From a bacterium (GTDB lineage: Bacteria; Patescibacteriota; Patescibacteriia; UBA1558; S5-K13), in the NCBI GenBank assembly GCA_029555085.1, contig JAKPTO010000026.1, positions 63,435-127,434 of the forward strand: a stretch of 64,000 nucleotides of DNA, given 5' to 3'. Positions 16,278-34,019 of this stretch are shown piece after piece. Under the pieces are notes generated by a model, which saw only the letters and a program-made list of their open reading frames with translations, had not been told where the DNA came from and did no database searches. The stretch's first letter is position 1. Each line of letters opens with the position of its first letter. The translations under genes and the position numbers were made by a program.

Positions 16278-18293
<2,016 letters not shown>

Positions 18294-19130
18294 CTAATTA
18301 AAATCTTTTAACAAAGATTCTTCAGAAAATATAACATAATCAAATAACCCAGATAAAGGATCTTCTCTTCTTAAACTAACAGACAATGCTTGTCTATTAG
18401 CATTTTCTATATCTCCTCCGGGATATTGACCAATTGTTTTTATTACATATATATTTTTAAACTTCAGAGAATTATTATCTCCATCAAATGCTTGAATTTT
18501 TAAATCATGAATATCACAAAATAAAGCTTTGACTCTAAATTGATAAATCTTATTTGGATCTAAACTAGAACCGCCAATTTCAGTTATTGAATCACTTGAC
18601 TCGTTTAGTAAAGATTTATAAACATGTTGCGATTCGCCCCCCGCGCTCCAAACAATACTTCCTCCGGACTTCCATTCATTTACTGTAAGTTCTATCCAAG
18701 AACTATTTGGCGACTCTTCGGTGGAACAATTATCCTCCCAAGAAATTGAAAGATAAGATAGATTACTCGCCTCCCCTAAATCCTCTAAATTGTAAAGGTC
18801 GAATTGAAAAAATTGATTTTTTTTGAGACCTATATTTATACTTTGAATATCGTCATCTACTGTTCTAATTATGGAACTATCAAAGCCATTAAAAAAATAA
18901 CTGTCGGTATTTAATTTTTCTGGAATTATGTTTTTTTGCCTTAAATAGTATATTGCTTGTTCATTGCCTGATTCTGCAGCATAAAAAGCAATATTTGCAT
19001 TATCAACGCTTTTAGATTGCTTAATTTGCCTTAAAGAGAATCTTGATACATAAAGAACACTTACCAAAATAGAAGTCATAATTAAAAACGCTAATAAAAG
19101 AGCTGATCCATTTTTAACTTTAATTGTCAT
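18294..19130 (-). CDS. PilX-like minor pilin
   Basis: KNG/SALLLA prepilin-like N-terminus and AFYAAESG motif. Confidence 0.8.
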   Translation of the reverse strand: MTIKVKNGSALLLAFLIMTSILVSVLYVSRFSLRQIKQSKSVDNANIAFYAAESGNEQAIYYLRQKNIIPEKLNTDSYFFNGFDSSIIRTVDDDIQSINIGLKKNQFFQFDLYNLEDLGEASNLSYLSISWEDNCSTEESPNSSWIELTVNEWKSGGSIVWSAGGESQHVYKSLLNESSDSITEIGGSSLDPNKIYQFRVKALFCDIHDLKIQAFDGDNNSLKFKNIYVIKTIGQYPGGDIENANRQALSVSLRREDPLSGLFDYVIFSEESLLKDFN

Positions 19131-19132
19131 AA

Positions 19133-19693
19133 TTATTTTATATAATTTCTTGCACTTACTGTTGTTTGTAATAAAATTTCTGCACCATCTCTATTATCAA
19201 CAAATGTCATAACAATTGTTACAAGTGTTTGCTTGTTTAAATCCCCAGCAAGCTTTTCTGTTGATATAGTTGGGCTAATATAAAAATACATATCTTTCAC
19301 GCTAACACTATTTCCAGTTACATCACTCCAACCAGAATCATTATATTTAACTTGCAGAAAAGTATTGTTTTTTCCTCCAACTAATTTTACTTGTTTTCGA
19401 AAAAAAATCTTATTACCGGAATTATCTTCTAGAGCCAACTCTGTTATTGGGTTTTTTACTGTAAAATCTGGATAATAAGAATAATCAACATTACCCAATC
19501 TTACTTCTCTAGATATATAATCCATTGCGAACCTCATCTCATTTTGTACCCTTTGCATTGCTATAATCTTTGTATTTGCCTTCATTGTTAATATGTACAC
19601 ACCAATACAAATCGTTGAAACAATACTAAAAATAGCAGTCGCGACAATCATTTCAAGTAATGTAAATCCTGGTTTTTTATATATTTTTTCCAT
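19133..19693 (-). CDS. Prepilin-type N-terminal methylation domain protein (PilW-like)
   Basis: G/FTLLEMIVA prepilin motif and DYISREVR. Confidence 0.88.
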   Translation of the reverse strand: MEKIYKKPGFTLLEMIVATAIFSIVSTICIGVYILTMKANTKIIAMQRVQNEMRFAMDYISREVRLGNVDYSYYPDFTVKNPITELALEDNSGNKIFFRKQVKLVGGKNNTFLQVKYNDSGWSDVTGNSVSVKDMYFYISPTISTEKLAGDLNKQTLVTIVMTFVDNRDGAEILLQTTVSARNYIK

Positions 19694-19704
19694 AAATTAA
19701 AATA

Positions 19705-20364
19705 CTATTTCCAATTATATATCCTTTCTTGTATCTGGGTTGTTTTGATCGAACCTCCATCGTTCCAACCAACTAAAGAAGTTACCTGTAGGCCTATAAA
19801 ATTTGTAGGATCTTCGCATTCTGATTCTGGTGATGTATTAATTATTTCATCTTCCCATTCATCATTATAACAAATCGCATCTATATATATTATTCTATAA
19901 AAATTAGCATCCGACAATTGATAAGAATCTAATCCCTCCATAGAATCTTTATGAACATATATTTTTTGATTTGGCGATTCTTCTGGCCAAGCTAAGAACA
20001 ATTTACATTGTCCAGTCTCAAGACATTTATCCCAAGGTATGCTAATGTATTCTAAAATATATCCATCTTGATCTTCCCTGGGATACTTATTATCTAATAT
20101 AAATGTTCTTGAATCTCCATCAATTGCTAAATCCGGTAATAATCCACTGCTCCACGCTAATCCATCAATCCAATTTGAATCTCTTATATTTCTAACAACT
20201 TCCACTCCTTCTCTGGCTAAGTTCGTGGCTTTAAGCATATTATGATTGAAACGCTCAACCCTAAGATTCGCCACAACTAAATTCATAATAGATAAAATAC
20301 CTACCACTGCTATATAAATAGCTATTACTACCTCCAATATTCCCTGTGCTTTACTTTTTTTCAT
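19705..20364 (-). CDS. PilV-like minor pilin
   Basis: AQGILEVVIAI N-terminus and ATNLAREGVEVVRNIRDSNW motif. Confidence 0.8.
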   Translation of the reverse strand: MKKSKAQGILEVVIAIYIAVVGILSIMNLVVANLRVERFNHNMLKATNLAREGVEVVRNIRDSNWIDGLAWSSGLLPDLAIDGDSRTFILDNKYPREDQDGYILEYISIPWDKCLETGQCKLFLAWPEESPNQKIYVHKDSMEGLDSYQLSDANFYRIIYIDAICYNDEWEDEIINTSPESECEDPTNFIGLQVTSLVGWNDGGSIKTTQIQERIYNWK

Positions 20365-20366
20365 AT

Positions 20367-20948
20367 TTAATTATTTAAAAATTCAGACCATGTTTTACCA
20401 GAACCTGGAGTAATGTTTATTACCCATTTCCCCGGTGCCTTAGTACTGCCTAAAAATATCTGACAAGACAAAACATTTTCATCTTTATTTTCATCTATAA
20501 TAATAGACATTAAACCTTTTGGCATTGAAAAATTAATATCTAATGATTCTAATTCTTTTTCTTCGTATCCAAGTTCTGATTCATCTTTAATTTTACACCG
20601 TAACTGATCAAAATAAAACTGACTTTCTAAAATATTTTCTGAATAAATTAAATTTTCATTATAAAAACCATAAACACCAATATCTGCGTAAATATTATAT
20701 GAATATGAACCATTTACATCCTTTAAAAAAATTATTCCATAACCATTAATAGGTACTGTATTTTGAATTTTTTGACCTGTTAGTGAAAGATTTTTTGTAA
20801 ATCCTATTGAATCTTCTATGTCATAAGCTGTTAAACGAAATTCATTTATTCTTCTTGTATATCCATAATCAAGAATAACAACACTTAAGAGAATTACAAA
20901 TATACCAATCGCAACTACAACCTCTATTATTGTAAAAGCTTTTTTCAT
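20367..20948 (-). CDS. Prepilin-type protein (FimT/GspH-like)
   Basis: KA/FTIIEVVVAIGI prepilin motif; first gene of the minor-pilin series. Confidence 0.8.
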   Translation of the reverse strand: MKKAFTIIEVVVAIGIFVILLSVVILDYGYTRRINEFRLTAYDIEDSIGFTKNLSLTGQKIQNTVPINGYGIIFLKDVNGSYSYNIYADIGVYGFYNENLIYSENILESQFYFDQLRCKIKDESELGYEEKELESLDINFSMPKGLMSIIIDENKDENVLSCQIFLGSTKAPGKWVINITPGSGKTWSEFLNN

Positions 20949-21724
20949 ATAATTAATAAATTAATATACCAATTCAATAATTGCTCTCCGAAAAGAAAAG
21001 AAATAAACATTGCAAAAGAAATAAATGGTCCAAGAGGAATTTTTAATTTAGTTTTTTCTTTTTTAGATTTAGATAATAAAAGAAAAATACCAATTATTGC
21101 TCCGGAAAAGTAAGTAATCAATAACGCCACAATTGTAATTTTAAATCCCAAAAGCGCACCCATAAAAACCCCGAGCAATATGTCTCCACTACCAAGCCAT
21201 TTTCCTTTTGAAATAACATATTGTATACCAAAAAAAATTACTCCGAGAACAATCCCATAAAAAATATTTAAAATATTATTTTTCATTATTAAATTAAAAA
21301 TAATAGATAAAACTATCCCCAAATAAACTATAAAATCCACTATTAAATAGTATTTCAAATCATAAATAAATATAAAAGACAAAATAAATACAAGTATTAA
21401 ATAAAATATAAAGCTAATAATTAATTGACCATGAAGCCAAAGTCCAGAAACAAAGAAAAACCAATATCCGAATGAAAATAAAATTCCTAGAATTACCTCA
21501 ACAAAAAAATTCTCAAATTGAATCTTTGATTTACAATATCTACATTTCCCAAGTAAAACAATGTAAGAAAAAACTGGAATTAAATCTAAAATCCCCAATG
21601 TTTTTTTACAATTAAGACAATACGATCTATTAAGTATTGATTTTTCTTCATTTATTCGATAAATCAAGCAATCTAAAAAACTACCAAAAACAGCCCCTAA
21701 AATAAAAAATAGTATATAGAACAT
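20945..21724 (-). CDS. pilD: Prepilin peptidase
   Basis: GSFL..IYR, two CxxC (CLNC, CRYC), IYDLK, GSGD and PLGPFI. Start taken at the ATG 6 nt after TGCTATAAT. Confidence 0.94.
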   Translation of the reverse strand: MFYILFFILGAVFGSFLDCLIYRINEEKSILNRSYCLNCKKTLGILDLIPVFSYIVLLGKCRYCKSKIQFENFFVEVILGILFSFGYWFFFVSGLWLHGQLIISFIFYLILVFILSFIFIYDLKYYLIVDFIVYLGIVLSIIFNLIMKNNILNIFYGIVLGVIFFGIQYVISKGKWLGSGDILLGVFMGALLGFKITIVALLITYFSGAIIGIFLLLSKSKKEKTKLKIPLGPFISFAMFISFLFGEQLLNWYINLLII

Positions 21725-21778
21725 ACCATTATTATAGCACAAAATCTCGGATTATAATATTTATATTTTCATCCAAAA

Positions 21779-22396
21779 TTACTTCAAAATTGTACCTGTT
21801 TTTATATACCAGATATAAATATCTAACTCTCCCTGACTCATATCCAATTTTTTGCATATTTTATGCATTTTTTTCTCTATTTCAATATATCTCTTTGGTG
21901 TTAATGTTTTATATTCAGCTATTATTCCGTTATCAATCAAACTACTAATAATATGCCTATCTAAAATAGCATAATCAAAAAAACCAACATTTCTTAAAAA
22001 ATGCGACGATTCCTTCATCCCAAGACCTTTTATATTTTTCAAAAGCCACATTCTTTTATCATTTTCTTCTAATAAAATATCTTTGATGTTTTTATACTTT
22101 CTTGCCAAAACAATACGATTCGCGCGTTGAGGCCAAAATCTATGACCTGATTTTTTCAAAAATCTTGCTAATTTTTCTTCATTCCAATTTAAAAAACCAT
22201 TCGGAGTTAATTTTTTTTGAATTTCAATTGACTCTTTTGCTTTCCAATTTGAAGTTAATAAACAATAACAAAGTTCAAAAAACCATTCATTGTTTGATTT
22301 TTTGTTTAAAATTAAAAAATCTTTTAATCTTCTATCAATTTTATTTTTGATTTTTGATTTTCTTATTTCTTGAATTTTGTTTATTAATTTTTTCAT
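21779..22396 (-). CDS. ogg: 8-oxoguanine N-glycosylase/DNA lyase (Ogg2 type)
   Basis: FFELCYCLLT, GHRF, IKGLGMKESSHFLRNVG, AILDRHI and LDIYIWY..TG.ILK. Likely start MKKLINK. Confidence 0.9.
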   Translation of the reverse strand: MKKLINKIQEIRKSKIKNKIDRRLKDFLILNKKSNNEWFFELCYCLLTSNWKAKESIEIQKKLTPNGFLNWNEEKLARFLKKSGHRFWPQRANRIVLARKYKNIKDILLEENDKRMWLLKNIKGLGMKESSHFLRNVGFFDYAILDRHIISSLIDNGIIAEYKTLTPKRYIEIEKKMHKICKKLDMSQGELDIYIWYIKTGTILK

Positions 22397-23033
22397 AATG
22401 TAAACAATAATTTTTAATTTTACAAATATTACATTTTGGACCAATTGGCCTACAAATATTTTGACCAAACAATACTAATACAAAATTTATTTTTTTCCAG
22501 TACAACTTATCTAAATTTTTTCTTAAAAACATTTCGGTTTCATACGGAGTCCTTGTGTTTAAATATCCAATTCTATTTAATATTCTATGAACATGCGTAT
22601 CCACACAAATTGCTGGTTTTTTTAAAACTGTAGAAATATATAAATTTGCTGTTTTTCTCCCAATTCCTGGAAGTTTTATAAGTTCATCGATAGTTTCCGG
22701 AATTTTAGAATTGAAATCCTTATTTAAAACAAAACATAATTTTTTTAAATTTTTTGCTTTTGTTTTATAAAAACCAACTGGATAAATCAATTTTTGTATT
22801 TGTAGATTTGTTAATTTTTGCAAATCTTTACAGTTGCTTACTTTTTCAAATAATCTTAATGATGACTCAAGAGTTGTTTTGTCTTTTGTTCGTGACGATA
22901 AAATTATTGAAATTAAAATCTGAAAATTGTTAAATTTTTTAGAATACAAAAAATCAACAGCAGGAAGTTCAAATTCACTAACCTGCTGTGACAATAAATC
23001 AAGTATTTTTTCTATTTTTACTTTGATTTCCAT
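22341..23033 (-). CDS. nth: Endonuclease III
   Basis: ILSSRTKD, HhH LPGIGRKTAN, VDTHVHRI and 4Fe-4S motif CRPIGPKCNICKIKNYC. Confidence 0.95.
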   Translation of the reverse strand: MEIKVKIEKILDLLSQQVSEFELPAVDFLYSKKFNNFQILISIILSSRTKDKTTLESSLRLFEKVSNCKDLQKLTNLQIQKLIYPVGFYKTKAKNLKKLCFVLNKDFNSKIPETIDELIKLPGIGRKTANLYISTVLKKPAICVDTHVHRILNRIGYLNTRTPYETEMFLRKNLDKLYWKKINFVLVLFGQNICRPIGPKCNICKIKNYCLHYEKINKQNSRNKKIKNQK

Positions 23034-23398
23034 AATCCATGAAGATTGCAATATGCTCTAACCGTAACAATATTTGCTTTAGCGTAGAAGTCTGCTTCTG
23101 GTTTATCTCCTGGATTTAAAAATTTCTTCCCAGACTTTCCATCATCAGTATTAATTTCAATCCACTCTATAAAATGAGATTCTTCCATTGGATGTTCAGT
23201 TGATCCAACCTTAACTTTGTAACCAAATTCTGTTTTTTCTATAATTGGAACATGTTTTTCATTACCCTGATCTTGTGATTTTTCTCCTTCTAATCTCATA
23301 GCCGTCCCACAACAAACAAGTGATTCTGCTCCAATGTTTAAAACCTCAATAACATTGCCACAAATATCACATTTATAAATCTGTTTTTTCTTTGTCAT
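23018..23398 (-). CDS. dfx: Desulfoferrodoxin / superoxide reductase
   Basis: YKCDICGN, LVCCG, EKHVP, HPMEESHFIEWI and YCNLHGLW. Confidence 0.95.
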   Translation of the reverse strand: MTKKKQIYKCDICGNVIEVLNIGAESLVCCGTAMRLEGEKSQDQGNEKHVPIIEKTEFGYKVKVGSTEHPMEESHFIEWIEINTDDGKSGKKFLNPGDKPEADFYAKANIVTVRAYCNLHGLWKSK

Positions 23399-23474
23399 AA
23401 TATTTAAATTAATAATCAATTATAAAATTTTAAATACTAAGTAACCAAAATGGAAATTTGATTATTAGTTGTTG

Positions 23475-24044
23475 TTACTTGGACATTGTTTCAAAATATG
23501 CTTTTGGGTGTTTACATGCTGGACATTCTTCTGGGGCATTTTCTGATTCATGAACATAACCACAATTTCTACAAACCCAATAAACTTTTTCTGATCTTAC
23601 AAAAGTAGTATTGTTTTCTAAATGTTCTAAAAATTTCTTATACTTTTCTTCATGATGTCGTTCTGCCTCGGCAATACTCCTAAGTCTAATTGCAATATCT
23701 TTTAAACCCTCGCGTTCTGCTATATCAGCAAATTCTGGATACATTGATGTATGTTCATAATTTTCTCCAGCAATTGCTGCTTTTAAATTCGCAATTGTAT
23801 CACCTAAAACAGTAGGACATTCTGAATCAACTTTTATAGCTTCTCCACTATTTTGAGTTAATTCGTTTATAAGTTTCATTAGAACTTTTGCATGTTCTTT
23901 TTCTTGATCTGCTGTTAGTGTAAAGTTAGCTGAAATCTCTTCAAATCCCTCTTTTTTAGCAACAGAAGCATAATAAGTATATCTATTTCTAGCTTGTGAT
24001 TCACCTATAAAAGCTTTTGCTAAATTTTTAATTGTTTCTTGCAT
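23475..24044 (-). CDS. rbr: Rubrerythrin
   Basis: AFIGESQARNRY, QEKEHAK, GENYE, AERHHE and rubredoxin CRNCG...CPAC. Confidence 0.96.
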   Translation of the reverse strand: MQETIKNLAKAFIGESQARNRYTYYASVAKKEGFEEISANFTLTADQEKEHAKVLMKLINELTQNSGEAIKVDSECPTVLGDTIANLKAAIAGENYEHTSMYPEFADIAEREGLKDIAIRLRSIAEAERHHEEKYKKFLEHLENNTTFVRSEKVYWVCRNCGYVHESENAPEECPACKHPKAYFETMSK

Positions 24045-24121
24045 AATTTTTTAATTAATTATTAATATTTTAAGTATATCAAATTCAAACAGCATTATAA
24101 AGCGTTGTTAATAGCGTATAA

Positions 24122-25336
24122 TTATTGATAATATTTATTTCTATTATAGTTAAATTCAAAAGATTTATTAAAATCAGATACTAATGATGGAATATTTGAA
24201 ACCATAATTGACTCATCGTTTCTAAAAAATCCCCCAGAACTCCAATTATTTGTTCCAAAAAGAGCTATTTTATCATCAAAAATCATTAGATGATGGTGTA
24301 AAAAAGAATTTAAATTTTGTTCATTAAATATTTGTTTTAATTCTTTATTTCTATTTTCATCAGTCAAAATTTCTAAATTATCTAAATGATTTTGCTTTTT
24401 CTTTTTTATCATAAAATTAAATACGGAACCATCTACTGAAAAATTATAATCATCTGTTAAAATTTTTACACTAATCTTTTTTGATGCTAATAATAAATCT
24501 TCTGCAATATCTCTATCTGTCATAAGCCAAATCATGGATTTTATGTTGTCCTTTGAATTCTCAATCAGATTCAACATTCTATCCTTGATACCAGTATTTA
24601 TTCTTTGTGGAGTAAACCAAATTTCTAAAAATCCTTCTGGATATTTTATAAGAGCAGCGAATGGATTATATTCTTTTGATAATTTATCTCTTCCGCGTAA
24701 ACCAGAAAATATTCTATCAAATTCCTCTCCATATATTTCAATAATTTCTGGCCTGTCAGTTTCTAAAATAAAACTCGGATCATATTTATCTTGAATATAA
24801 GTAAAATTATAAGAACTAAAGAGTAATTTCTGGGTCTCCTCGCCTCTATCAATTATTATAAATTTATGATGCATGTATTCTGATTTTTGAGTATTAATGT
24901 TCCTAGACAAAATATCTTTTCTTGTAATATTATCTCGCTTTTCTGAAAACAATCTATTATTTATATCTCTATGCACATCACTAAAAACTAATTTTATATT
25001 CACTCCTCTGTCTGATGCTTTATAAATTGCATCTCTTATCCTTTCGTCGTTCATAGAATAAATAGCCACTTCAATGGTTTTTTGTGCAGAATTTATAGAA
25101 TCAATAACAATTTTTGACAAAATGTTTTGTCCAAATTCATCATTAAAATGTAAACTCCCTGAAAATGGTTCTGTGATTTCTATGATTTTCGCAGGCCTAA
25201 ATTCTACTATTCTTCTCTTCGAAAAAGATGTAAAAAATAAGTATATAAAAATTCCCATTGTAATTAATAAAAGAATTGGAATTGCCCAAAAAATAAATGT
25301 CTTATGTGATTTTTCTAATTTCATCACCCAGCTCAT
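24122..25336 (-). CDS. Membrane-anchored phospholipase D-superfamily protein (two PLD/Nuc-like domains)
   Basis: N-terminal TM helix. HKD motif 1 is MHHKFIIID...SSYNFT; motif 2 is LHHHLMIFD...GTNNWS...NDE. Confidence 0.88.
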   Translation of the reverse strand: MSWVMKLEKSHKTFIFWAIPILLLITMGIFIYLFFTSFSKRRIVEFRPAKIIEITEPFSGSLHFNDEFGQNILSKIVIDSINSAQKTIEVAIYSMNDERIRDAIYKASDRGVNIKLVFSDVHRDINNRLFSEKRDNITRKDILSRNINTQKSEYMHHKFIIIDRGEETQKLLFSSYNFTYIQDKYDPSFILETDRPEIIEIYGEEFDRIFSGLRGRDKLSKEYNPFAALIKYPEGFLEIWFTPQRINTGIKDRMLNLIENSKDNIKSMIWLMTDRDIAEDLLLASKKISVKILTDDYNFSVDGSVFNFMIKKKKQNHLDNLEILTDENRNKELKQIFNEQNLNSFLHHHLMIFDDKIALFGTNNWSSGGFFRNDESIMVSNIPSLVSDFNKSFEFNYNRNKYYQ

Positions 25337-27017
25337 ATTTTTGCTGATAAGTTAAATAATTATTATTTTCTTTTGAAAATACTATAATAATAGAATCTTC
25401 AAGTTTTTCACTTAATATTTCTATTATTTTTATAATATCATTATAATTCAAATCAATCCAAATATTGTCAATAATAATAAGTTGTTTTTTATTAACTATG
25501 CAATGGAGCGCTTGAAGAGCAAAGCATGAAACATTATTATTAAAAGCCAACACACAAGAAGAATTAACATTATTTATAGAAGATATTTTTGATGCAATAA
25601 ATTGATTTTCAGATATTACCTTGATCACATTTTCAATTTCAGAAGAATTAATTTGTTCTTTATCTTTCCCTAAAATAAACTCCATCAAACTTTTTTCTGA
25701 AAATATTTTAGGATCGAAAAAATATGCGCCACAGAATAATTTTTGCCATATTGGATAATCATATCTTTTATTGTCTATTTTCACCTTCATTGCCTTGGGA
25801 TTATAAATACGCATTCCTGCAAAAATTTTAGCCAAACTTGTTTTTCCTGAAAAATTCTCTCCAAAAAATAAAATTCTTTCTGATTTTTTAAAATGAAAAT
25901 CTAGATTTCTGAAATATTTACCATCTTTAAATAATTTTGTTTTTTTTGCGTGAAACAATATTTCATTATGAATTTTTAAAGTATTTTTTCTACGCAAAAC
26001 TGCTCCTTTTTGCAATACTGTTAAAAACAAACCCAATCTTGCTGGAAAAAAATATAAACCAACTCTTAGCGCTTGATTAAGTGTTCTTGGAAAATAGAAC
26101 ATTAAAAATAAAAATAAAAATCTATTATCTCTACCAAGTAAATTTATAAAAGAAAAAAACTCATTTGTAAAAAAATTGCTTAAAATTACAATTATCAAAA
26201 CTATCACAAATACAATTTTTGCGCTTATTCCAATCCAAAGATTTCTTCTAATGCGAAAAAAAGAATCTATATTAACAAGACGATCAAACTTTTGTAGCAC
26301 ACTATCTTCATTATTAAAATTTTTATTAAAATATTTTTCTGATAAGCTAATATCGATATGTTTTATTATTTGTGAATAAAAAGTGACTTCTTGCGAAATA
26401 TATTTTTTTGCAACATAATAAGCTATTATTCCTATAAGAATAGAAAGTGCCACGAAAAAAACGAAAACAATAAATAAATTTAATCCTATTAAATATGCAA
26501 TGAGCATTGCCACAGAAAAATATATGAACCATCTAATTATTCCAAAAAAAACAATTGATACACCCATTGAAACAAGCGATAATTGATAAGAAATTTTTGC
26601 TATTAACCTACCCTGCCTTTCGTTGTTCATTGTTTCAACGGGTCTATCAATAAATGATTTAAATATTCTGCGCCTAATATCATTTGCAAATAATACCACA
26701 ATAGTTTTTTCTTGTTTTATAGAAAAAAATGAACTTATGATAAACAACAATATAAAAATAGCAAAAAATTGCCAAAAAAATGGGTCTAAAATACTATTTA
26801 GCTGAGATAATTTATTTCTACTAAATACAATAAGAAACGCTTCTATTACACAGGAAACAAAAATTAAAAGAACAAGACGCAAAATATAAAATTTATATTT
26901 TTTAAAAAAATCTCGTAAATACCCGTAATGTAAAAACGATAATTTTATATCTTTGTATTTATTCCTTGTTTTTCTAATTTCTTTTATTAATCTAATTTGT
27001 TCTTTTATTTCTTTCAT
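25302..27017 (-). CDS. ABC exporter-like protein (TMD plus degenerate ATPase)
   Basis: About 6 TM helices with DIRRRIFKSF and GRLIAKI intracellular-loop-like segments. Walker A GENFSGKT, Walker B-like LIIIDN, no LSGGQ. Confidence 0.75.
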   Translation of the reverse strand: MKEIKEQIRLIKEIRKTRNKYKDIKLSFLHYGYLRDFFKKYKFYILRLVLLIFVSCVIEAFLIVFSRNKLSQLNSILDPFFWQFFAIFILLFIISSFFSIKQEKTIVVLFANDIRRRIFKSFIDRPVETMNNERQGRLIAKISYQLSLVSMGVSIVFFGIIRWFIYFSVAMLIAYLIGLNLFIVFVFFVALSILIGIIAYYVAKKYISQEVTFYSQIIKHIDISLSEKYFNKNFNNEDSVLQKFDRLVNIDSFFRIRRNLWIGISAKIVFVIVLIIVILSNFFTNEFFSFINLLGRDNRFLFLFLMFYFPRTLNQALRVGLYFFPARLGLFLTVLQKGAVLRRKNTLKIHNEILFHAKKTKLFKDGKYFRNLDFHFKKSERILFFGENFSGKTSLAKIFAGMRIYNPKAMKVKIDNKRYDYPIWQKLFCGAYFFDPKIFSEKSLMEFILGKDKEQINSSEIENVIKVISENQFIASKISSINNVNSSCVLAFNNNVSCFALQALHCIVNKKQLIIIDNIWIDLNYNDIIKIIEILSEKLEDSIIIVFSKENNNYLTYQQKYELGDEIRKIT

Positions 27018-28209
27018 AATGAAAGTCTAAATAAAAATTATATAATGATTTTATTTTTAAATATTCTATCTCTTTTCTTAACAACCTTCTGTTGCGTGGT
27101 GAATATTTACCAAATATAAAATCTGTTAAAATACGGAAAAAATCTTCTGATAATTTTTTTATTTGTTCTGAGTTATTGATTTGTGGTTTATCTTTTATAA
27201 TTTTTTGAAATTGGTAGTTAAAATTTTTTTCTGGATGTCCCATAATCCTTCTCAGTAAATACTTTTTTTTACTTAAATTATAATTTTTATATTTTAAAAT
27301 ACTTTTCCAACCAGCAATAATACGCTTAATATATGATTTTTCTAAACTAATAATTCCTGAATTAAAGCAGTAGCCTAAAAAAGAAAAATTTTCTTTTGCA
27401 TCACCAATAAATAATTTGCTATTATTTATTGTTAAATTTCTAATATTCAAATCTTTGATAATTTCTAATTTTAATTTATTTAGCTTGTCTATGTTATTAT
27501 CAAAAATACCTATATCATCTCCTATTCTTATATAAAATGAACATTGTTTTTGATATTTATGATCAAGGTCTGTTAAATATAAATTATTAAAAAGTGCTAT
27601 TAGTGGAACACCCTGGACAAGACCTATATCAGGTGCTTCTATCTTACCATTTTTATATATTTTATTAAAAATAAATAATTTTAATAAATCTAATATTTTT
27701 CTATCTTCAAAAATGTTTTCCAGTTGTGAGTATAAAACATTCTTATCAATCAAGTCAGAATAGTTTTCCAAATCTAACACTAATGCTTTGTCTGTAGAAA
27801 AATTTTTCCTATATCTATGGCAAAAATTTTTTGCTGCAAAATATGGTGGCTTGCCCGGCCTATATGAAAACAATCTTTTTGAAAAAACTTTTTCAAATTC
27901 TGGTAATAAAACTCTATAAATTGCCTGTGCTTTTATACGATCTTTTATATTATAAATAAAAATATCCCTGAATTTCTCGGGATTATTTTTTTTAGGAATT
28001 GAAACAATAAGTGCTGGCTCAATTTCCCTATTTTCAACTAATTCTTTTTGACAAATATCTATAAGCTCCTTTGAATTTAAATCTCTGTCTTGTATTGAAA
28101 TATTATCCAAACCGTGATATCTAAAACTTTTACTATCTATAGAAAATTTTTCCACTATATCTAAATAAGCAGATCGAATATTATCATAAGATACAATTTT
28201 ATTAAACAT
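26992..28209 (-). CDS. Divergent reverse transcriptase (group II-like core, IGDD catalytic motif)
   Basis: RT motifs in order: GLDN, IPKKN, RDIFIYNIKDRIKAQA, FSYRPGK, LDLENYSDLID, GLVQGVPL..LFNNLYL..LD, YIRIGDDI, LTINNSK and FSFLGY. Confidence 0.9.
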   Translation of the reverse strand: MFNKIVSYDNIRSAYLDIVEKFSIDSKSFRYHGLDNISIQDRDLNSKELIDICQKELVENREIEPALIVSIPKKNNPEKFRDIFIYNIKDRIKAQAIYRVLLPEFEKVFSKRLFSYRPGKPPYFAAKNFCHRYRKNFSTDKALVLDLENYSDLIDKNVLYSQLENIFEDRKILDLLKLFIFNKIYKNGKIEAPDIGLVQGVPLIALFNNLYLTDLDHKYQKQCSFYIRIGDDIGIFDNNIDKLNKLKLEIIKDLNIRNLTINNSKLFIGDAKENFSFLGYCFNSGIISLEKSYIKRIIAGWKSILKYKNYNLSKKKYLLRRIMGHPEKNFNYQFQKIIKDKPQINNSEQIKKLSEDFFRILTDFIFGKYSPRNRRLLRKEIEYLKIKSLYNFYLDFHYERNKRTN

Positions 28210-28407
28210 ATTTTTAAAAATCGTCCTCAGGATATATAATAAAAATACTATATATTAATAAATCTAATGAAGACCCCCGTCCACAAACTGGTTACAACCG
28301 TTTCCATTTTAATTAATTCGATATTAACGAATATAAAAAATTAAAACTAAAACGATTATTAATATCTCCTAAAATAGGAGTTTTGAGGATGATTTTTAAA
28401 AGTACAT
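28206..28407 (-). ncRNA. Candidate structured RT-associated ncRNA / 5' leader (retron a1/a2-like closure)
   Basis: Inverted repeat 28384-28401 vs 28212-28229 (17/18 match), nested stem 28354-28365 vs 28252-28264 and several internal hairpins. Lies between a promoter and the RT start. Confidence 0.65.
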
Positions 28408-28412
28408 AATAT

Positions 28413-28421
28413 ATTATAGCA
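28413..28421 (-). promoter_or_regulatory. Extended -10 promoter (TGCTATAAT) for the RT operon
   Basis: Perfect TGnTATAAT on the minus strand, just upstream of the 5' inverted-repeat arm. Confidence 0.65.
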
Positions 28422-28461
28422 TGTCAATAAAGCGTATGTAAAGAATAAATATATAATTTTG

Positions 28462-28470
28462 TGATATAAT
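28462..28470 (+). promoter_or_regulatory. Extended -10 promoter for a leaderless recG transcript
   Basis: TGATATAAT 6 nt before the recG ATG. Confidence 0.6.
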
Positions 28471-28476
28471 TAATCT

Positions 28477-30540
28477 ATGAATCTAGATACAACACTTGAT
28501 AAAATCTACGGAATAGGTCCAACAATCTATAAAAAATTACAAAAAATCGGATTAAATACAATATCTGATGCTATTTTTTATTATCCATTTAGATATGAAG
28601 ATTTTTCCCATTTAAAACAAATAAATGAGCTTGTAAATGAAGAATCTGCCACTATAAAAGGAAAAATCATACTTTTAAACAATAAGAGATCTCCTAGAAA
28701 AAAAATGAATATCACTGAAATGCTTTTAGGAGATGATTCCGGACAAATTCAGATAATTTGGTTTAATCAACCATATATTAAAAATATATTACAAATTGGA
28801 GATGAGATATTTGTTTCAGGTGTTGTAAAAAAATCACTTTTGGGATTATCACTTATAAATCCAAATTATGAAAAAACTAATAGAGACACATCACACACTG
28901 CAAGAATTATTCCTATATATCCATCAACAGAGCATTTATCACAGAAACAACTTAGATACATAATAAAACAATCCTTGTCTTGTATAAATGAATTACATGA
29001 AAGGTTACCAAGTCAAATTATTAAAAAAGAAAATTTAATAGAAATAAAAGAGGCAATAAAACAAATTCACTTTCCAGATAATTATAAAAAATTAGATCTT
29101 GCAAAAAAAAGATTATCATTTGATGAAATATTTTTATTATCATGTTTATCAAAATTTATTAAAAAACAAAATATTGAATTAAGCGCTCCTCAAATTAATT
29201 TCAAGGAAAAACAGATAAAAGATTTAGTAAAAAAAATTCCATTTAAATTAACAGAAGATCAAAGAAAGGCAACCTGGCAAATTCTAAAAGATATTAGCCA
29301 CAAAATTCCAATGAATAGACTTCTTGAAGGCGATGTAGGAAGTGGAAAGACAATTGTTTCTTTTATCTGCGCTTACAATGTAATCTTGAACAAATATCAA
29401 GCAATTTTAATGTCTCCTACTCAGATTTTAACAAAACAACACTTTGAAAATGCTGTAAAATTTTTCAAGGACTATGATATTAATATTTTACTTTTTACAA
29501 ACTCTGACAGATTATTATTTAATGGAAAAAAACAATTAGCACAAAAATTAACAAAAAAAGAAATTAATAAGTTTGTCAAAAAATCTGATTTTATAATAGG
29601 AACTCATTCTTTAATTCAGCAAAATGTAGAATTCAAAAATATTGGGCTCATAATAATTGACGAGCAACACAGATTCGGAGTTAAGCAGCGTCAAGAATTA
29701 ACAAAAAAATCAGATATTAGTCCACACTTTTTATCAATGACTGCAACTCCAATTCCAAGATCTCTAGCGCTTACAATTTATGGAGATTTAGATATTTCAA
29801 AAATTTTACAAAAACCAGCAAACAGAAAAAAAATTATTACAAAATTTGTATATTCTCGCAACAGAACAAAAGCTTATGAATTTATTTATAACCAGATCCA
29901 AAACGGCAGACAAGTTTTTGTTGTGTGTCCACTTATAAATGAATCGGATAAATTAGGAGTAAAATCCGTAATGAGTGAATATGAAAAATTAAGCAACGAC
30001 ATTTTTCCAAATTTAAAAATAGAATATTTACATGGAAAAATGAAAGAAACAGAAAAGCAAAAAATTCTAAAAAGTTTTTCTGACAATGAAACAAAAATTT
30101 TAGTATCAACTTCTGTTATTGAGGTTGGAATTGATTTTCCAAATGTAACAATAATGATAATTGAAGGTGCTGATAGATTTGGATTGGCATCACTCCATCA
30201 ATTTCGAGGTCGTGTTGGTCGCGGAGAACATCAATCATTTTGCTTTTTATTTTCTGAATCAAACTCAGAAAAATCCCGTAAACGTTTAGAAATATTAACA
30301 AAAACAGATAATGGATTTGAACTCGCAGAATATGATTTAAAATTTCGTGGAAGTGGAGATTTGTATGGAATAAAACAATCAGGATTTATGAATGGAGTGA
30401 AAATTGCAGATTTATCAGATTTAGAATTAATCAAAAAATGCAATATTTGGGCTCAATATATTTTTGAAAAAGGTCTTGAAAAATTCCCTCAAATAAAAAA
30501 AGAGATAGAATTACTATCTTCTGATATTCACTTGGAATAA
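28477..30540 (+). CDS. recG: ATP-dependent DNA helicase RecG
   Basis: MNRLLEGDVGSGKT, DEQHRFGV, MTATPIPRSL and LHQFRGRVGRG. Confidence 0.98.
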   Translation: MNLDTTLDKIYGIGPTIYKKLQKIGLNTISDAIFYYPFRYEDFSHLKQINELVNEESATIKGKIILLNNKRSPRKKMNITEMLLGDDSGQIQIIWFNQPYIKNILQIGDEIFVSGVVKKSLLGLSLINPNYEKTNRDTSHTARIIPIYPSTEHLSQKQLRYIIKQSLSCINELHERLPSQIIKKENLIEIKEAIKQIHFPDNYKKLDLAKKRLSFDEIFLLSCLSKFIKKQNIELSAPQINFKEKQIKDLVKKIPFKLTEDQRKATWQILKDISHKIPMNRLLEGDVGSGKTIVSFICAYNVILNKYQAILMSPTQILTKQHFENAVKFFKDYDINILLFTNSDRLLFNGKKQLAQKLTKKEINKFVKKSDFIIGTHSLIQQNVEFKNIGLIIIDEQHRFGVKQRQELTKKSDISPHFLSMTATPIPRSLALTIYGDLDISKILQKPANRKKIITKFVYSRNRTKAYEFIYNQIQNGRQVFVVCPLINESDKLGVKSVMSEYEKLSNDIFPNLKIEYLHGKMKETEKQKILKSFSDNETKILVSTSVIEVGIDFPNVTIMIIEGADRFGLASLHQFRGRVGRGEHQSFCFLFSESNSEKSRKRLEILTKTDNGFELAEYDLKFRGSGDLYGIKQSGFMNGVKIADLSDLELIKKCNIWAQYIFEKGLEKFPQIKKEIELLSSDIHLE

Positions 30541-30575
30541 ATTAAGAATATAAAATAAGCTAAACAATTCAAAAC

Positions 30576-31913
30576 TTAAATTAAAAACTTTTTAAGTTCT
30601 TTTATATTTTTGATACAATTCAAATTAATTCCTTTTACATCAACTGCTTTTTCAAAACTTGGAATAATTATATTTTTAAATCCTAAATTCACTGCTTCTT
30701 TTATTCTCTCTTTTGTTTTTGGTATTTGTCTAATTTCTCCATTGAGTCCTACTTCACCAAAAAATACTGAATTTTCCATAATTTTTTTATTTTCATATGA
30801 TGAATAAATTGCCACCGCAACCGCTAAATCAAGCGCGCGGTCCGAAACTTTGAAGCCACCAGTTAAATTAATATAAACATCATATAAATTTAATTTTAAA
30901 TCTAATTTTGATTGAAGTACTGCTATAAGTAATTCTAATCTTTTCTGATCATAACCAGATACGGTTCTTTTTGGATAACCAAAATTTGTTTTTGATACAA
31001 GTGCTTGAAGTTCTAACATTAAAACCTGATTTCCTTCTATAATAGAAGTAATTGCCGTGCCTGAACTTTCTGGATTAATTGATGACAAATAAATTTTTGA
31101 TGGATTTATCACTTCTTTAAATCCTGATTTTGTCATCTCTAAAATTACCGACTCATCAGTTGCTCCAAATCTATTTTTAACAGATTTCAAAATTCTAAAT
31201 CTATGCAATCTATCACCTTCAAGACTCAGTACGCAATCAACTAAATGTTCCATTGTTTTAGGTCCCGCTAAATCACCTGATTTATTTACATGACTTATGA
31301 TGAGAGTTGCAATATTAAATTTTCTTGCAATTTCCATAATTTTTACAGTACAAGCCCTTACTTGCGCGACTCCACCTGGATCGCTTTCAATCTCACTCGT
31401 GTAAAGTGTTTGAATTGAATCTATAATTAAAAAATCTGGTTTGATTTTTAATATTCCAGCTAGAATTATTTCTATATTATTTTCTGCCAAAAACTTTACT
31501 ACTTTACTATCAACTTCCAATCTATCAAAACGAGATTTTACTGAACTTGCACTCTCTTCTCCTGAAACATATAAAGTATTTAAACTCTTGTTTATAATTT
31601 GAGAAATAATTGTAGATTTTCCAATCCCCGGCTCACCACCAAGTAAAACCAAAGAAGAAGGAACTAATCCTCCTCCGACTACTTTATCAAAATAAGTTAA
31701 TCCTGTTTTTATTTTTTTAACTTGTTCATTTTTTATTTTTGACAAATCTATGAAATCAACTTTTAAATCTTTTAAATTTTCTGTTTTGTCTTTTCTTTCG
31801 TCTTCGATAAATGTTTCTTTTTCTAATGTTCCCCAAGCACCACACTCAATACACTTTCCAGCCCATTTCGGAAATTGTGCTCCACATTTTGAACATGAAT
31901 ATATTGTTTTCAT
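30576..31913 (-). CDS. radA: DNA repair protein RadA/Sms
   Basis: Zn finger CSKCG...CIECG, GEPGIGKST, DSIQT, KNRFG and Lon-like GEVGLNGEIR. Confidence 0.97.
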   Translation of the reverse strand: MKTIYSCSKCGAQFPKWAGKCIECGAWGTLEKETFIEDERKDKTENLKDLKVDFIDLSKIKNEQVKKIKTGLTYFDKVVGGGLVPSSLVLLGGEPGIGKSTIISQIINKSLNTLYVSGEESASSVKSRFDRLEVDSKVVKFLAENNIEIILAGILKIKPDFLIIDSIQTLYTSEIESDPGGVAQVRACTVKIMEIARKFNIATLIISHVNKSGDLAGPKTMEHLVDCVLSLEGDRLHRFRILKSVKNRFGATDESVILEMTKSGFKEVINPSKIYLSSINPESSGTAITSIIEGNQVLMLELQALVSKTNFGYPKRTVSGYDQKRLELLIAVLQSKLDLKLNLYDVYINLTGGFKVSDRALDLAVAVAIYSSYENKKIMENSVFFGEVGLNGEIRQIPKTKERIKEAVNLGFKNIIIPSFEKAVDVKGINLNCIKNIKELKKFLI

Positions 31914-31939
31914 TTAATTATATTAGTTTTATATTTATA

Positions 31940-33352
31940 TTATCTACCGATTCCCTTTCTTGCTATATTCTCAAATCCTAATTCTTTGCATTTATTATAA
32001 CGAGCTAATTTTAAATTACCAGTAGAAATAGCCCACTGACTCGTTGTGCCTCCAGCATATCTTCTAAAACAAAGTTCCAAGTTACCATCTTTACAATACT
32101 GATGTTTCCATCCTAAAACAAAAGCTTCTAAATTAGAATCAATAGTTAATAATGAATCAAAACTAAAACACTTATTTTGATATATAAAACCATTATTATT
32201 ATTACATAAAATATCTTGTTTAGAATGGTAAGTAATTTGACCCAAACCCAATCCAAATGTATAACCTTTTTTATTTATATAGTTTTTCCAATTAGAAATA
32301 GAGACCCCTGGAATATTTTTATCATAAACATACTTAGAGCAATTAGGATTATTACACAACTCTCTTTTATTGCTATTAATTTTTCCTGCCAACCAATCCT
32401 TGCAACAAGAAGGATAAAGATTACATATATGTGCCCTGCGAGCAATAATATCACAAGCCGTGTCTCTAGTAACAGCCGAGTCATTGCCAAATGCTCTTGG
32501 GTCTCCTCCTGATTCTTGATGAATTACAGCATAATAAATACACTCATCTATATTGTTCCACTTAGCAGACTTTTGAATACCAACAATTACTTCCTCAGAA
32601 AAAATATGACTATCACCAACAGATTTTATATTAGACCCAGATCCAATATAAGAACCACTACTAGCTAATTCATATCTATCAACTTCAATAGGTATAATCT
32701 TCTCCACCTTTATTGGTACTATATTCAACAAGGCTGGATTTATTGTTTGGAGTATCAAAACAGAAGAAACGCATAAAACAAACCCTATTAAAGCATTTTG
32801 TAGTCTTGATTTAGCTTCCCCTATTTTACTCTGATTTCCTCCTGCTAATACCCACTGAAAACCAGCCAATATTATTGCTAAAACAGCCACGATTCCTGAT
32901 AAATATATTAAATATCTAAAAAGTACTACTAAAAAATCTCCAATCAAAGCACCGCTTACCTCTACTTCACTTCTAAAACCTGGTATTCCGACTTCTGGAG
33001 TAAATGATATAGATTTTGGTTCCCCAGGAGTTTCATCTACGCCTTCATTTGAATTATTTTGACAATCAGAAGCCCATTGTTTAATAGCCTCCTGTTTATA
33101 GTGATTACGAAATTCAATATCATGCACAACTTCAGCTGGAAATCCAGCTGCCGTATTCTGCAACTCCCTATCCATCCAAGTCGTATACAAACCCTGATAA
33201 TCAACGCTAGATTTATTTAAATCAGTGGCCGGACAATAACTCGGCCTTAAGTATTTTAAATTGGGATCATCCGGTAACTGTGCCTCTACGCCTCTAAAAA
33301 AAAACAGAAACGCTACACTAAAAATAAATAAATATCTCCTTATCTTATTCAT
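31940..33352 (-). CDS. TrbC/VirB2-like pilin domain fused to a lytic transglycosylase (SLT)-like domain
   Basis: Pilin segment LSGIVAVLAIILAGFQWVLAGGNQSKIGEAKSRLQNALIG...ILQTINP, plus SLT motifs AVIHQESGGDP and GLGQIT. Confidence 0.75.
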   Translation of the reverse strand: MNKIRRYLFIFSVAFLFFFRGVEAQLPDDPNLKYLRPSYCPATDLNKSSVDYQGLYTTWMDRELQNTAAGFPAEVVHDIEFRNHYKQEAIKQWASDCQNNSNEGVDETPGEPKSISFTPEVGIPGFRSEVEVSGALIGDFLVVLFRYLIYLSGIVAVLAIILAGFQWVLAGGNQSKIGEAKSRLQNALIGFVLCVSSVLILQTINPALLNIVPIKVEKIIPIEVDRYELASSGSYIGSGSNIKSVGDSHIFSEEVIVGIQKSAKWNNIDECIYYAVIHQESGGDPRAFGNDSAVTRDTACDIIARRAHICNLYPSCCKDWLAGKINSNKRELCNNPNCSKYVYDKNIPGVSISNWKNYINKKGYTFGLGLGQITYHSKQDILCNNNNGFIYQNKCFSFDSLLTIDSNLEAFVLGWKHQYCKDGNLELCFRRYAGGTTSQWAISTGNLKLARYNKCKELGFENIARKGIGR

Positions 33353-33356
33353 ATTT

Positions 33357-34019
33357 TCATTTGATAATTGATTTTATAATATTTTCCAAATTTTCTTGAG
33401 TTATCTCACCTTCAAATTTTTGTTGATTTATAAAAATTGTTGGAATTTGCTCTACTTTAAGCACATATGCCTCCACTATATTATTATCTATATCTTCCAA
33501 GTACTTCTGCGAAGAATAACATGATACAAATTTATTTGTATCCATTTTTAATTTTTCTGAAATTCTTTTATATAAATCTAAAGAAAATTTTTCATCGGTA
33601 TTTAGTAACTCATTATTATATTCCCAATATTTATCCTGCTCAAGAGAACAACGAGCCGCTAGAGCTGAACCCTTTGAAAAAATATTTGTAGAAAGTGGCA
33701 AATCTTTCCAAACCAAATTAACATCTTTTGGATATTTTTTTATTATTTCATCTATAATATTCAAAATATTTTTTGTTTCACTTGTTTCATAATCAGTAAA
33801 TAAATAAATACTAACCTGTGTATTCCTCTCTCCTTTAATTGGATCATTTATAAATGATGATAATAAATATTTTTCTTGGGTCGTGGTTTCCACAATTTGC
33901 TTTTCATTTTTAATTTTTATAATCTTATAAAAATTAAACAAATTATAAAATAAAAAACTAAGACCTATTAGAATAAAAATCATTACAATAATTGAAATTA
34001 TTTTGTCTTGCTTGTTCAT
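33357..34019 (-). CDS. DsbA-like thioredoxin-fold protein lacking CxxC
   Basis: DPIKG, FTDYETSET (CxxC absent), WKDLPL, AARCSLEQDKYWEY and IPTIFIN. Confidence 0.8.
   Translation of the reverse strand: MNKQDKIISIIVMIFILIGLSFLFYNLFNFYKIIKIKNEKQIVETTTQEKYLLSSFINDPIKGERNTQVSIYLFTDYETSETKNILNIIDEIIKKYPKDVNLVWKDLPLSTNIFSKGSALAARCSLEQDKYWEYNNELLNTDEKFSLDLYKRISEKLKMDTNKFVSCYSSQKYLEDIDNNIVEAYVLKVEQIPTIFINQQKFEGEITQENLENIIKSIIK

Follow-up and report, generated by a model that had tools for sequence, protein, structure and literature searches.

The locus described here lies within a 64,000-nt stretch of a patescibacterial genome (the window, from whose first letter all coordinates without a locus label are counted) and had been singled out, in an earlier sequence-only reading, as a candidate new reverse transcriptase (RT) system. 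It is a self-contained cassette of 4.4 kb in which a structured RNA precedes three genes, encoding an RT, a membrane protein shaped like an ATP-binding cassette (ABC) exporter and a protein of the phospholipase D (PLD) superfamily:

24082–28476, no strand given: whole cassette, its extent taken from comparison with the empty recG-rbr site of a genome of the same genus (G465)
28413–28442, minus strand: promoter-like site, with TTTACA (28442–28437), an 18-nt spacer and a TG-extended TATAAT, TGCTATAAT (28421–28413)
28211–28401, minus strand: structured, pseudoknotted RNA (covariance-model match 28214–28398)
26992–28209, minus strand: RT, 405 aa (open reading frame (ORF) list; Pfam RVT_1, 3e-13)
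25302–27017, minus strand: ABC-like membrane protein, 571 aa (Pfam ABC_membrane and ABC_tran)
24122–25336, minus strand: PLD-superfamily protein, 404 aa (Pfam PLDc_2, 3.8e-31, in two stretches)

The best explanation of this arrangement is a module composed of a pseudoknotted RNA of ~190 nt, an RT of the group-II-like (G2L) type, an ABC-exporter-shaped protein and an anchored PLD nuclease predicted to face outward. The three minus-strand reading frames overlap by 26 nt (RT/ABC) and 35 nt (ABC/PLD), exactly as the sequence-only reading had stated, and overlapping ends recur in related loci. The promoter that it had placed at 28421–28413 coincides with the top-scoring of the 53 promoter-like sites in 23400–28700: TTTACA and TGCTATAAT together give 11 of 12 matches with a TG extension. 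As a class such sites are not enriched in this DNA of 25% GC (53 against 42.1 ± 6.0 in shuffles). Of 40 places examined, all have a −10-like hexamer (at least five of six positions) in the 60 nt preceding the RNA, and in 19 it is a perfect TATAAT; given the AT-rich DNA, this is weak evidence for a promoter. The cassette is flanked by the genes for RecG and rubrerythrin, the setting described before, with desulfoferrodoxin, an Nth-like protein, an Ogg-type glycosylase and RadA encoded nearby.

For comparison, 67 related loci were gathered from genomes, metagenomes and one viral collection. This set was not de-replicated: L023, L024 and L025 share identical match coordinates, as do L050 and L068; identical RNA match scores suggest that L036 is L069 and that L039 is L040; and L009, L010 and L051 have nearly the same sequence ahead of the RT. 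The databases held 188 RT homologues of ~400 aa, and those with names are all assigned to Patescibacteria, Falkowbacteria or Magasanikbacteria, or are called plain 'bacterium'. An ABC homologue is present in 57 of 57 loci with at least 600 nt beyond the RT and a PLD homologue in 46 of 46 with at least 2300 nt, while all 47 loci that hold the three genes have them on one strand in the order RT-ABC-PLD. This synteny persists down to 35–40% RT identity, which rules out chance adjacency; none of the gathered loci with enough downstream DNA lacked these neighbours, and the proposal that the three genes form a unit is thereby borne out. Of the 86 genomes of the order, six have the RT gene, and these six are also the ones with the ABC and PLD genes, always adjacent. 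A search for the RNA, made under stricter filters and with 30 candidates scored per genome, found it in three RT-bearing genomes of the order, once each and beside the RT, and in none of 80 genomes without an RT. The four parts are thus inherited, lost and kept in order together.

The distribution is otherwise patchy. In a phylum-wide sample of 401 genomes the RT was found in the window's genome alone, where it is single-copy, and none of the three other genomes of the genus carries the module. In G465 (L079) recG and rbr lie 133 nt apart, leaving an empty site (L079:2848–2982); similarity to the window stops at position 24081 toward rbr and starts again at 28477 in recG. In G467 (L080:2298–6134) and G466 (L078:2229–4310) the same slot is filled by a 1278-aa secreted protein with a surface Ig-like domain, so that within the genus the recG-rbr slot is variable, being empty or holding either the Ig-like surface protein or the RT cassette. 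Two further genera of the family carry the cassette, G456 (L002) at the same recG-rbr site; in G464 the RT and recG both lie at contig ends, and their adjacency there is unproven. Among the cassette-bearing genomes of the family, RT identity is 71–73% and RecG identity 65–67%. These comparisons mark the cassette as accessory; its pattern in this family of genomes suggests vertical retention with repeated loss rather than recent mobility.

The leader upstream of the RT gene (28205–28476, minus strand, 272 nt) folds at −58.1 kcal/mol (z = −4.41), a value matched by none of 200 shuffled sequences, in keeping with the highly paired leader noted previously, and contains a covariation-supported RNA of ~190 nt. 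From 5' to 3', its architecture consists of helix P1, a conserved AAAAC, P2, a conserved joining strand (J2/3), P3 capped by P3b, a variable hairpin, a conserved AU-rich single strand and P5. The elements located in the window are:

28395–28384 with 28229–28218, minus strand: P1, closing helix
28380–28377 with 28369–28366, minus strand: P2, short hairpin
28356–28344 with 28310–28298, minus strand: P3, long helix capped by P3b
28331–28328 with 28320–28317, minus strand: P3b hairpin
28255–28246 with 28242–28232, minus strand: P5 hairpin
28365–28360 (J2/3) with 28326–28321 (P3b loop), minus strand: pseudoknot, 6 bp

The upstream regions of the related loci align well. RNAalifold, applied to a structure-blind MAFFT alignment of 20 sequences, returned 44 pairs, 32 of them with compensatory changes. 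In a trimmed MAFFT alignment of 18 sequences, 93.3% of 772 cells pair and both partners have changed in 31 of the 43 pairs; not one of 500 shuffled versions of this alignment reached any of five measures, and slid registers pair at 37–50%. The pseudoknot is formed by ATATTA in J2/3 and the complementary TAATAT in the P3b loop. Across 36 model-aligned sequences it is 98.0% paired (204 cells), with five of its six pairs changed on both sides and zero single-sided changes (variants include GCATTA/TAATGC, GTGTTA/TAACAC, ATACTA/TAGTAT and ATATCA/TGATAT), against 18.6–58.3% in slid controls. Because a covariance model cannot encode pseudoknots, this test is independent of the model fitting; RNAalifold run on the 5' core likewise picked the pseudoknot helix as the consensus. 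Covariation on this scale shows that the fold is under selection and that the sequences represent a genuine RNA family, and no Rfam family, introns included, matched at E ≤ 1 across 22000–31000.

The upstream element is also conserved in position, as the sequence-only reading had proposed to check. The RNA precedes the RT on the same strand in 54 of the 63 places with enough upstream DNA, a hand-counted tally that combines one model (R1) at E < 0.01 with a second (R2) at E < 0.05. The nine misses are L009, L010, L044, L045, L051, L059, L060, L064 and L066; in L009 a P2 hairpin and a 7-bp J2/3-loop complement can be seen by eye. In the window the 3' end of the RNA lies ~10 nt ahead of the RT start codon, and this gap is 10–20 nt in most loci. 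Three lineages carry tandem copies ahead of the RT:

L028: 4606–4777 and 4792–4994
L032: 1666–1749 and 1972–2055
L037: 4409–4491 and 4713–4797

At L055 the RNA (154–374) lies 1.8 kb upstream of the RT (2174), across two opposite-strand ORFs of 468 and 75 aa; the RT of this locus has a TATAAT-like site of its own. The tandem copies and the separation at L055 argue that the RNA is a cognate partner of the RT and a unit of its own, not merely a 5' untranslated region. Within the window's clade, a Shine-Dalgarno-like GGGG/GAGG located 9–13 nt before the ATG makes up the 3' strand of P1 and pairs with an anti-Shine-Dalgarno-like CCUC; since P1 buries this stretch, the RNA probably has a regulatory role there too. 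The P1 strand of distant clades is not Shine-Dalgarno-like. Priming by tRNA was considered and rejected: the 3' ends of the genome's 39 tRNAs are complementary to the RNA over 7 nt at most, and at least 7 nt was reached in 160 of 200 shuffles of the RNA.

The RT scored 124.9 bits against the NCBIfam equivalog for group II intron RTs (group_II_RT_mat, TIGR04416), for which the cut-off is 300. A phmmer search of the PDB (E ≤ 1) matched GsI-IIC (4e-17), the RTs of E. rectale and R. intestinalis (~2.5e-14), Cas6-RT-Cas1 (4.5e-12) and, remotely, G2L4 (E 0.27), and returned no retron, abortive infection (Abi) or defence-associated RT (DRT) chain. The AlphaFold2 model (pLDDT 90.3) superposes over its full length on the group II RT GsI-IIC (TM-score 0.75–0.80), which is also the best Foldseek match (1.8e-19), followed by DRT9 (3.9e-16), G2L4 (2e-15), diversity-generating retroelement (DGR) RTs and the RTs of intron ribonucleoproteins; the RT chains of Retron I-A and Retron-Eco7 are among the fold matches as well. 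The RT retains its polymerase residues in the aligned sequences, D146, D231 and D232 being invariant in 30 of them and the active-site motif reading R-[I/V]-G-D-D. A search of 1.84 billion representatives gave 47 at E ≤ 1e-30, which apart from a few short fragments are 390–470 aa long and align over nearly their full length; catalytic residues and protein length are conserved across these 47 representative clusters. The nearest relatives outside the family are the RTs of RT-Cas1 and RT-TPR-primase 'TOTE' fusions (E ~1e-25 to 1e-22). In a FastTree phylogeny of 137 RT domains, which was built without curated reference groups and so places the RT by its neighbours rather than in a full RT phylogeny, the window's sequence falls in a clade of 36 (SH-like support 98) inside a clade of 43 (98). 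The next sisters are free-standing RTs, one of which (P0160) comes from a Deltaproteobacteria metagenome-assembled genome (MAG), and RT-Cas1 and TOTE RTs are also neighbours. We class the RT as a new free-standing lineage of the group-II-intron-like type; it is not G2L4.

An already described system that had been misread would have to be a retron, a DRT of the unknown group (UG)/Abi classes, a DGR or a CRISPR-associated RT, and we consider this very improbable. The PADLOC models that match the RT do include RT_UG26 (2.1e-31, 107 bits), the RT part of Cas1_IIIb (1.8e-29) and RT_UG17 (4.3e-25), and DRT9 and DGR structures are among the fold matches. However, the generic/group-II-like PADLOC model (6.8e-39, 131.9 bits) and the group II equivalog both outscore UG26, and the RT sits in its own well-supported clade of 36–43 representatives. 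The main text of the UG/Abi survey, in the part available, gives Vsr as the partner of UG26 and SLATT as that of UG17, and contains neither 'ABC' nor 'PLD'. A retron is further disfavoured by the weak scores of the retron-type models (RT_IX 8.2e-06, RT_II-A 2.6e-05), together with the PDB search, and the RT falls outside the retron lineage. A CRISPR-associated RT was rejected on the lack of any Cas1 (PF01867) match in the 99.4%-complete genome, in a search whose controls responded, and a DGR on the lack of template/variable-like repeats in 18000–34000, where the only repeats are AT-rich ones of 30–46 nt with 68–81% identity; avd was not part of the profile searches. The earlier statement on missing transposase, integrase, cas and avd genes holds for Cas1, for DGR repeats and for the flanking families described below.

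The RT is most like the RTs of group II introns, which is what a decayed intron ORF would also show. The chance that it is such a remnant, or that the genes are neighbours by accident, is nevertheless negligible. No Rfam intron family matches at E ≤ 1 in 22000–31000, as expected from the earlier remark that intron flanks are absent; the ABC ORF overlaps the RT stop codon by 26 nt, which leaves no room for intron domains V–VI; the equivalog score is far below its cut-off; and the single copy in the genome, the constant synteny and the retention of catalytic residues and length in 47 clusters all oppose it. Known systems and a decayed intron are essentially excluded, in line with the original reading of the locus as a candidate new RT system.

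The ABC-like protein is built from a basic N-terminal tail, a type IV exporter transmembrane domain (TMD) and a degenerate nucleotide-binding domain (NBD). Its Pfam scores are both just above threshold (ABC_membrane 31 bits, cut-off 28; ABC_tran 25.8, cut-off 25). The Atlas model shows a complete type IV exporter fold (TM-score 0.72–0.80 over ~530–547 residues), with profile matches at 1e-11, and the overall TMD-NBD fold is that of MsbA, Sav1866, PglK, TM287/288 and PCAT1. Across 47 orthologues, a set that includes short read-through tails past the true stop in L004, L032 and L047, Walker A is kept (G391 in 42, K392 in 44, T/S393 in 46), as is the Walker B aspartate D517 (all 47). The position of the catalytic glutamate is occupied by Asn in 44, His in two and Pro in one, never by Glu, and other residues stand in place of the LSGGQ signature, the Q-loop Gln and the H-loop His. 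Judging by these motifs, the protein is likely to bind nucleotide yet unable to go through the normal cycle of hydrolysis. Of the earlier description as an ABC-exporter-like ATPase, the TMD-NBD exporter fold therefore stands, while an NBD that lacks the catalytic Glu, signature, Q-loop Gln and H-loop His makes the 'exporter ATPase' label doubtful. Unlike heterodimeric exporters with one degenerate site, a homodimer of this protein would have both sites dead.

In the PLD protein an N-terminal transmembrane helix (approximately residues 15–33) is followed by two HKD-type lobes. Motif 1 (H-x-K-x4-D ... S-x-N-x-T) is intact in 44 of 44 orthologues, and motif 2 reads H-x-H-x4-D ... GTNNWS, with His for Lys in 44 of 44; this set includes a read-through tail in L029 and, in L045, one internal stop. 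The alignment shows that both lobes retain their catalytic histidines. Each lobe matches Zucchini/MitoPLD (2.9e-17), NucT (2.7e-16) and Nuc (1.3e-14) in profile searches. In an AlphaFold2 model (pLDDT 93.1) a single long helix at the N-terminus leads into a body of two lobes, and the model matches a bacterial PLD and the single-stranded DNA (ssDNA) exonucleases PLD3/PLD4 (TM-score 0.60–0.64). PLD3/4 and Zucchini are N-terminally anchored, and the single N-terminal anchor helix of the module's protein is a likeness to these nucleases; its second motif, with His for Lys, differs from theirs. The defence models DrmC, DpdK and MkoB match weakly in PADLOC. Summed over the 44 orthologues, there are 264 Lys and Arg residues before the transmembrane helix against 95 in the 15 residues after it, a bias from which the positive-inside rule predicts an outward-facing catalytic domain. 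The protein is accordingly predicted to be a membrane-anchored, Nuc/Zucchini/PLD3-like double-HKD nuclease located outside the cytoplasm. The membrane-anchored PLD of the sequence-only reading is thus retained as regards its anchor and its nuclease-like character, but the predicted location fits processing at the surface better than an intracellular nuclease effector.

One of the closest known systems is Retron I-A (Eco7/Ec78), whose gene set is a non-coding RNA (ncRNA), an RT, the ATPase PtuA and the HNH nuclease PtuB. PtuA is an ABC-type ATPase. In both systems a single operon joins an RT and the structured RNA just ahead of it to two partners, a P-loop/ABC-type ATPase and a nuclease. The two differ as follows: the RT described here is G2L rather than of the retron lineage, the RNA is a five-helix pseudoknot rather than an msr/msd pair, the ATPase has a TMD-NBD exporter fold with a dead catalytic site, and the nuclease is of PLD type, membrane-anchored and predicted to be external. 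Measured against msr/msd RNAs, a closing helix (P1) is present, and P1 is followed by AAAAC with no conserved G there. DRT2 and DRT9 (UG/Abi class 2) share an RT of ~400–500 aa with a cognate structured ncRNA just 5' of it, but they need no membrane partners, and group II-type models and structures score better on the module's RT.

A review of RTs defines G2L RTs as free-standing RTs that are closest to group II intron RTs and have no intron ribozyme; the class is marked by the lack of an associated RNA structure, and the gene association printed for it is with queuosine genes. The module's RT is likewise free-standing, closest to group II intron RTs and without an intron ribozyme, but it has a conserved RNA of its own and its partners are ABC and PLD proteins instead of queuosine genes. 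The G2L4 RT of Pseudomonas has YIDD where the module's RT has R[IV]GDD. Mobile group II intron RTs (GsI-IIC, LtrA) resemble it over the full length in sequence and fold, and in both cases an RNA structure abuts the RT gene at the start codon; in contrast to mobile introns, the module has no ribozyme domains or En domain, is present in one copy per genome and has downstream genes that overlap the RT. The RT-Cas1 and RT-TPR-AEP 'TOTE' fusions, which contain its nearest RT-domain relatives, are domesticated group-II-type RTs in conflict systems, whereas the module's RT is fused to nothing and has no primase domain. PADLOC 2.0 holds no anti-phage system model that fits the RT-ABC-PLD gene set and returned single-protein similarities only. 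The earlier statement that no described type has these partners also agrees with the literature searched, where we found no description of an RT with ABC and PLD partners or of Falkowbacteria RTs, although supplementary UG/G2L gene-cluster tables, which lay outside that search, might list the family; four RT surveys (PMC9226505, PMC8632793, PMC2602772, PMC4244168) do not describe the gene set in the text available.

By analogy, we tentatively read the locus as a new RT-RNA conflict (defence-like) module acting at the membrane, an assignment that is quite possible while falling somewhat short of probable. The module's RT may bind its own leader RNA, much as the RTs of group II introns attach to RNA beside the start codon of their own gene; in the window's clade, binding at the Shine-Dalgarno-burying P1 would throttle translation of the three overlapping ORFs. 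The resulting RNA-RT particle, with or without a cDNA copied from the RNA, might then dock on the cytoplasmic face of the ABC-like protein, and through this protein either a signal or a nucleic-acid product could reach the PLD nuclease on the far side of the membrane. Such a module would take part in conflict with phages or other invading nucleic acids, as a form of retron- or DRT-like surveillance whose effector arm lies in and outside the membrane. A defence-like role is favoured because of the analogy with retrons and DRTs and because the nearest relatives of the RT belong to conflict systems. Several observations weigh against it. An outward-facing nuclease would be an odd effector for abortive infection, and no PADLOC system model fits the ABC protein (best mad8, 0.0016). 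Among the 25 commonest of 97 Pfam families in 86 flanking ORFs from 25 loci there are no known defence systems; these flanks are a housekeeping mix with one DNA methylase. RT divergence is similar to RecG divergence, with no sign of fast turnover or accelerated evolution. A P1 helix that buries a Shine-Dalgarno-like stretch just 5' of the start codon would suit a purely regulatory leader too, and that stretch is limited to the window's clade. The function itself is an inference.

The same parts might instead serve nucleic-acid traffic at the cell surface, a possible if doubtful alternative in which an RT-RNA product is passed outward by the ABC-shaped protein and trimmed or attached by the external PLD, or in which the PLD and a channel take up external nucleic acid for the RT to copy; such traffic would serve interaction between cells or with a host, or else scavenging, by a bacterium with a reduced genome. 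The predicted outside location of the PLD domain, its likeness in fold to the anchored ssDNA exonucleases PLD3/4 and in sequence to NucT and Nuc, and the whole exporter fold of the ABC protein are consistent with this, as are the lack of a defence-island context, a fifth, N-terminally anchored protein in 13 loci of a distant clade, and the pilin-type N_methyl proteins that form the commonest neighbour family (4 of 86 flanking ORFs). Yet an NBD without hydrolysis motifs makes active transport by the usual cycle unlikely, we know of no type IV ABC fold that transports nucleic acid, and a patchy spread (6 of 86 genomes in the order, 1 of 401 in the phylum sample) would be unexpected for a core lifestyle function. 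The RNA might, on the other hand, be only a cis-acting autoregulatory leader, through which the RT blocks its own ribosome-binding site while working on other substrates, for example DNA ends, as the G2L4 RT does in double-strand-break repair, with ABC and PLD as partners for an unrelated membrane task. This would explain the pairing of CCUC with GGGG/GAGG ahead of the ATG in the window's clade and the end of the RNA 10–20 nt before the start codon in most loci, and it draws on the behaviour of group II intron RTs at their own start codons, on G2L4 among the structural matches and on the repair genes around the cassette in the window's genome (recG, radA, nth, ogg). We nonetheless hold it to be unlikely: five helices and a conserved pseudoknot exceed the needs of an operator, the RNA occurs in tandem copies and, at L055, 1.8 kb away across two opposite-strand genes, P1 is not Shine-Dalgarno-like in distant clades, the repair context is not conserved at other loci, G2L4 is only a remote match in sequence, and the strict linkage to ABC and PLD is left unexplained.

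Beyond the conflict module itself, a bolder and distinctly improbable proposal is that a non-hydrolysing ABC-shaped conduit links the RT particle to a cell-surface nuclease, such that nucleic acid made by the RT, or a signal from it, crosses the membrane and is processed outside. If true, it would set a precedent among RT systems for an output acting beyond the cytoplasm; interception of phage or foreign nucleic acid at the envelope, or contact with a host cell, could then be its task. Retrons, DRTs, DGRs and RT-Cas1 have each revealed unexpected nucleic-acid chemistry and become tools. The general kind of system, an RT with a cognate ncRNA and effector genes, is already known; what is new is the RT lineage, the RNA family and the pair of partners. 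A G2L-type RT here has its own conserved pseudoknotted RNA, though G2L RTs are defined as having none; the RNA family is absent from Rfam; and the pairing of a pseudo-ABC exporter with a PLD nuclease predicted to face outward is unreported with any RT in the literature searched. The hosts are Patescibacteria, in which few defence or RT systems beyond DGRs have been described, and the small, self-contained cassette makes these hypotheses directly testable by heterologous expression.

Integrases and transposases are likewise missing from the 25 commonest flanking families. Collections of phages and plasmids contain no family member; the best matches there are 24–28% identical and the plasmid ones are group II ltrA. 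The sole IMG/VR match, L069 (a UViG of 10.3 kb), has the same RNA coordinates and score as L036, which lies on a 976-kb contig, and L069 is probably a chromosomal fragment filed as viral. The MAG records of L002 and L003 are titled 'uncultured Gammaproteobacteria bacterium'; L002 falls in the window's own family (G456), and the label looks wrong at least for this record. DNA contigs from runs X1 and X9 cover 23900–28700 with zero differences, and either is possibly the window's own source. Two other runs, guessed to be RNA, gave only two 151-nt contigs, both inside the ABC gene.

Around the cassette, oxidative-stress and DNA-repair genes form a cluster at 21779–24044 and 28477–31913 of the window, within which 22341–22468 is shared by the longest ogg and nth ORFs. 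Two RT paralogues, P0018 and P0078 (tags CVU82_03705 and CVU82_03210), are 60% and 48% identical to the window's RT; as they come from one Falkowbacteria MAG, with a longest contig of 568,144 nt given for each, some genomes appear to hold two modules. Possible broken copies are suggested by one TAA inside the PLD match G464:C7:3238–4440, by the internal stop in the PLD match L045:3059–4321, and by the ABC gene of L023–L025 and the RT of L063, each of which matches in two pieces.

The fifth protein adjoins the module in 13 loci of the distant clade whose RTs are 37–41% identical to that of the window, 11 times after the PLD gene and twice before the RNA. It is 190–204 aa long and combines a hydrophobic anchor at the N-terminus with two helical repeats and an SSR conserved at the C-terminus; it matches no Pfam family, and the window's genome encodes no homologue. 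Listed examples are:

L033:9149–9736, fifth protein
L036:9218–9829, fifth protein
L037:9240–9821, fifth protein
L047:9189–9764, fifth protein
L053:8410–8979, fifth protein
L063:9229–9816, fifth protein
L067:4119–4712, fifth protein, upstream of the RNA
L048:746–1345, fifth protein, upstream of the RNA

In one sub-clade the PLD gene is followed by a gene for an extracytoplasmic function (ECF)-type sigma-70 factor of 191–197 aa (L003:10140–10712, L004:6781–7368 and L005:10566–11156), which in L004 and L005 is preceded by a 143-aa ORF without a Pfam match.

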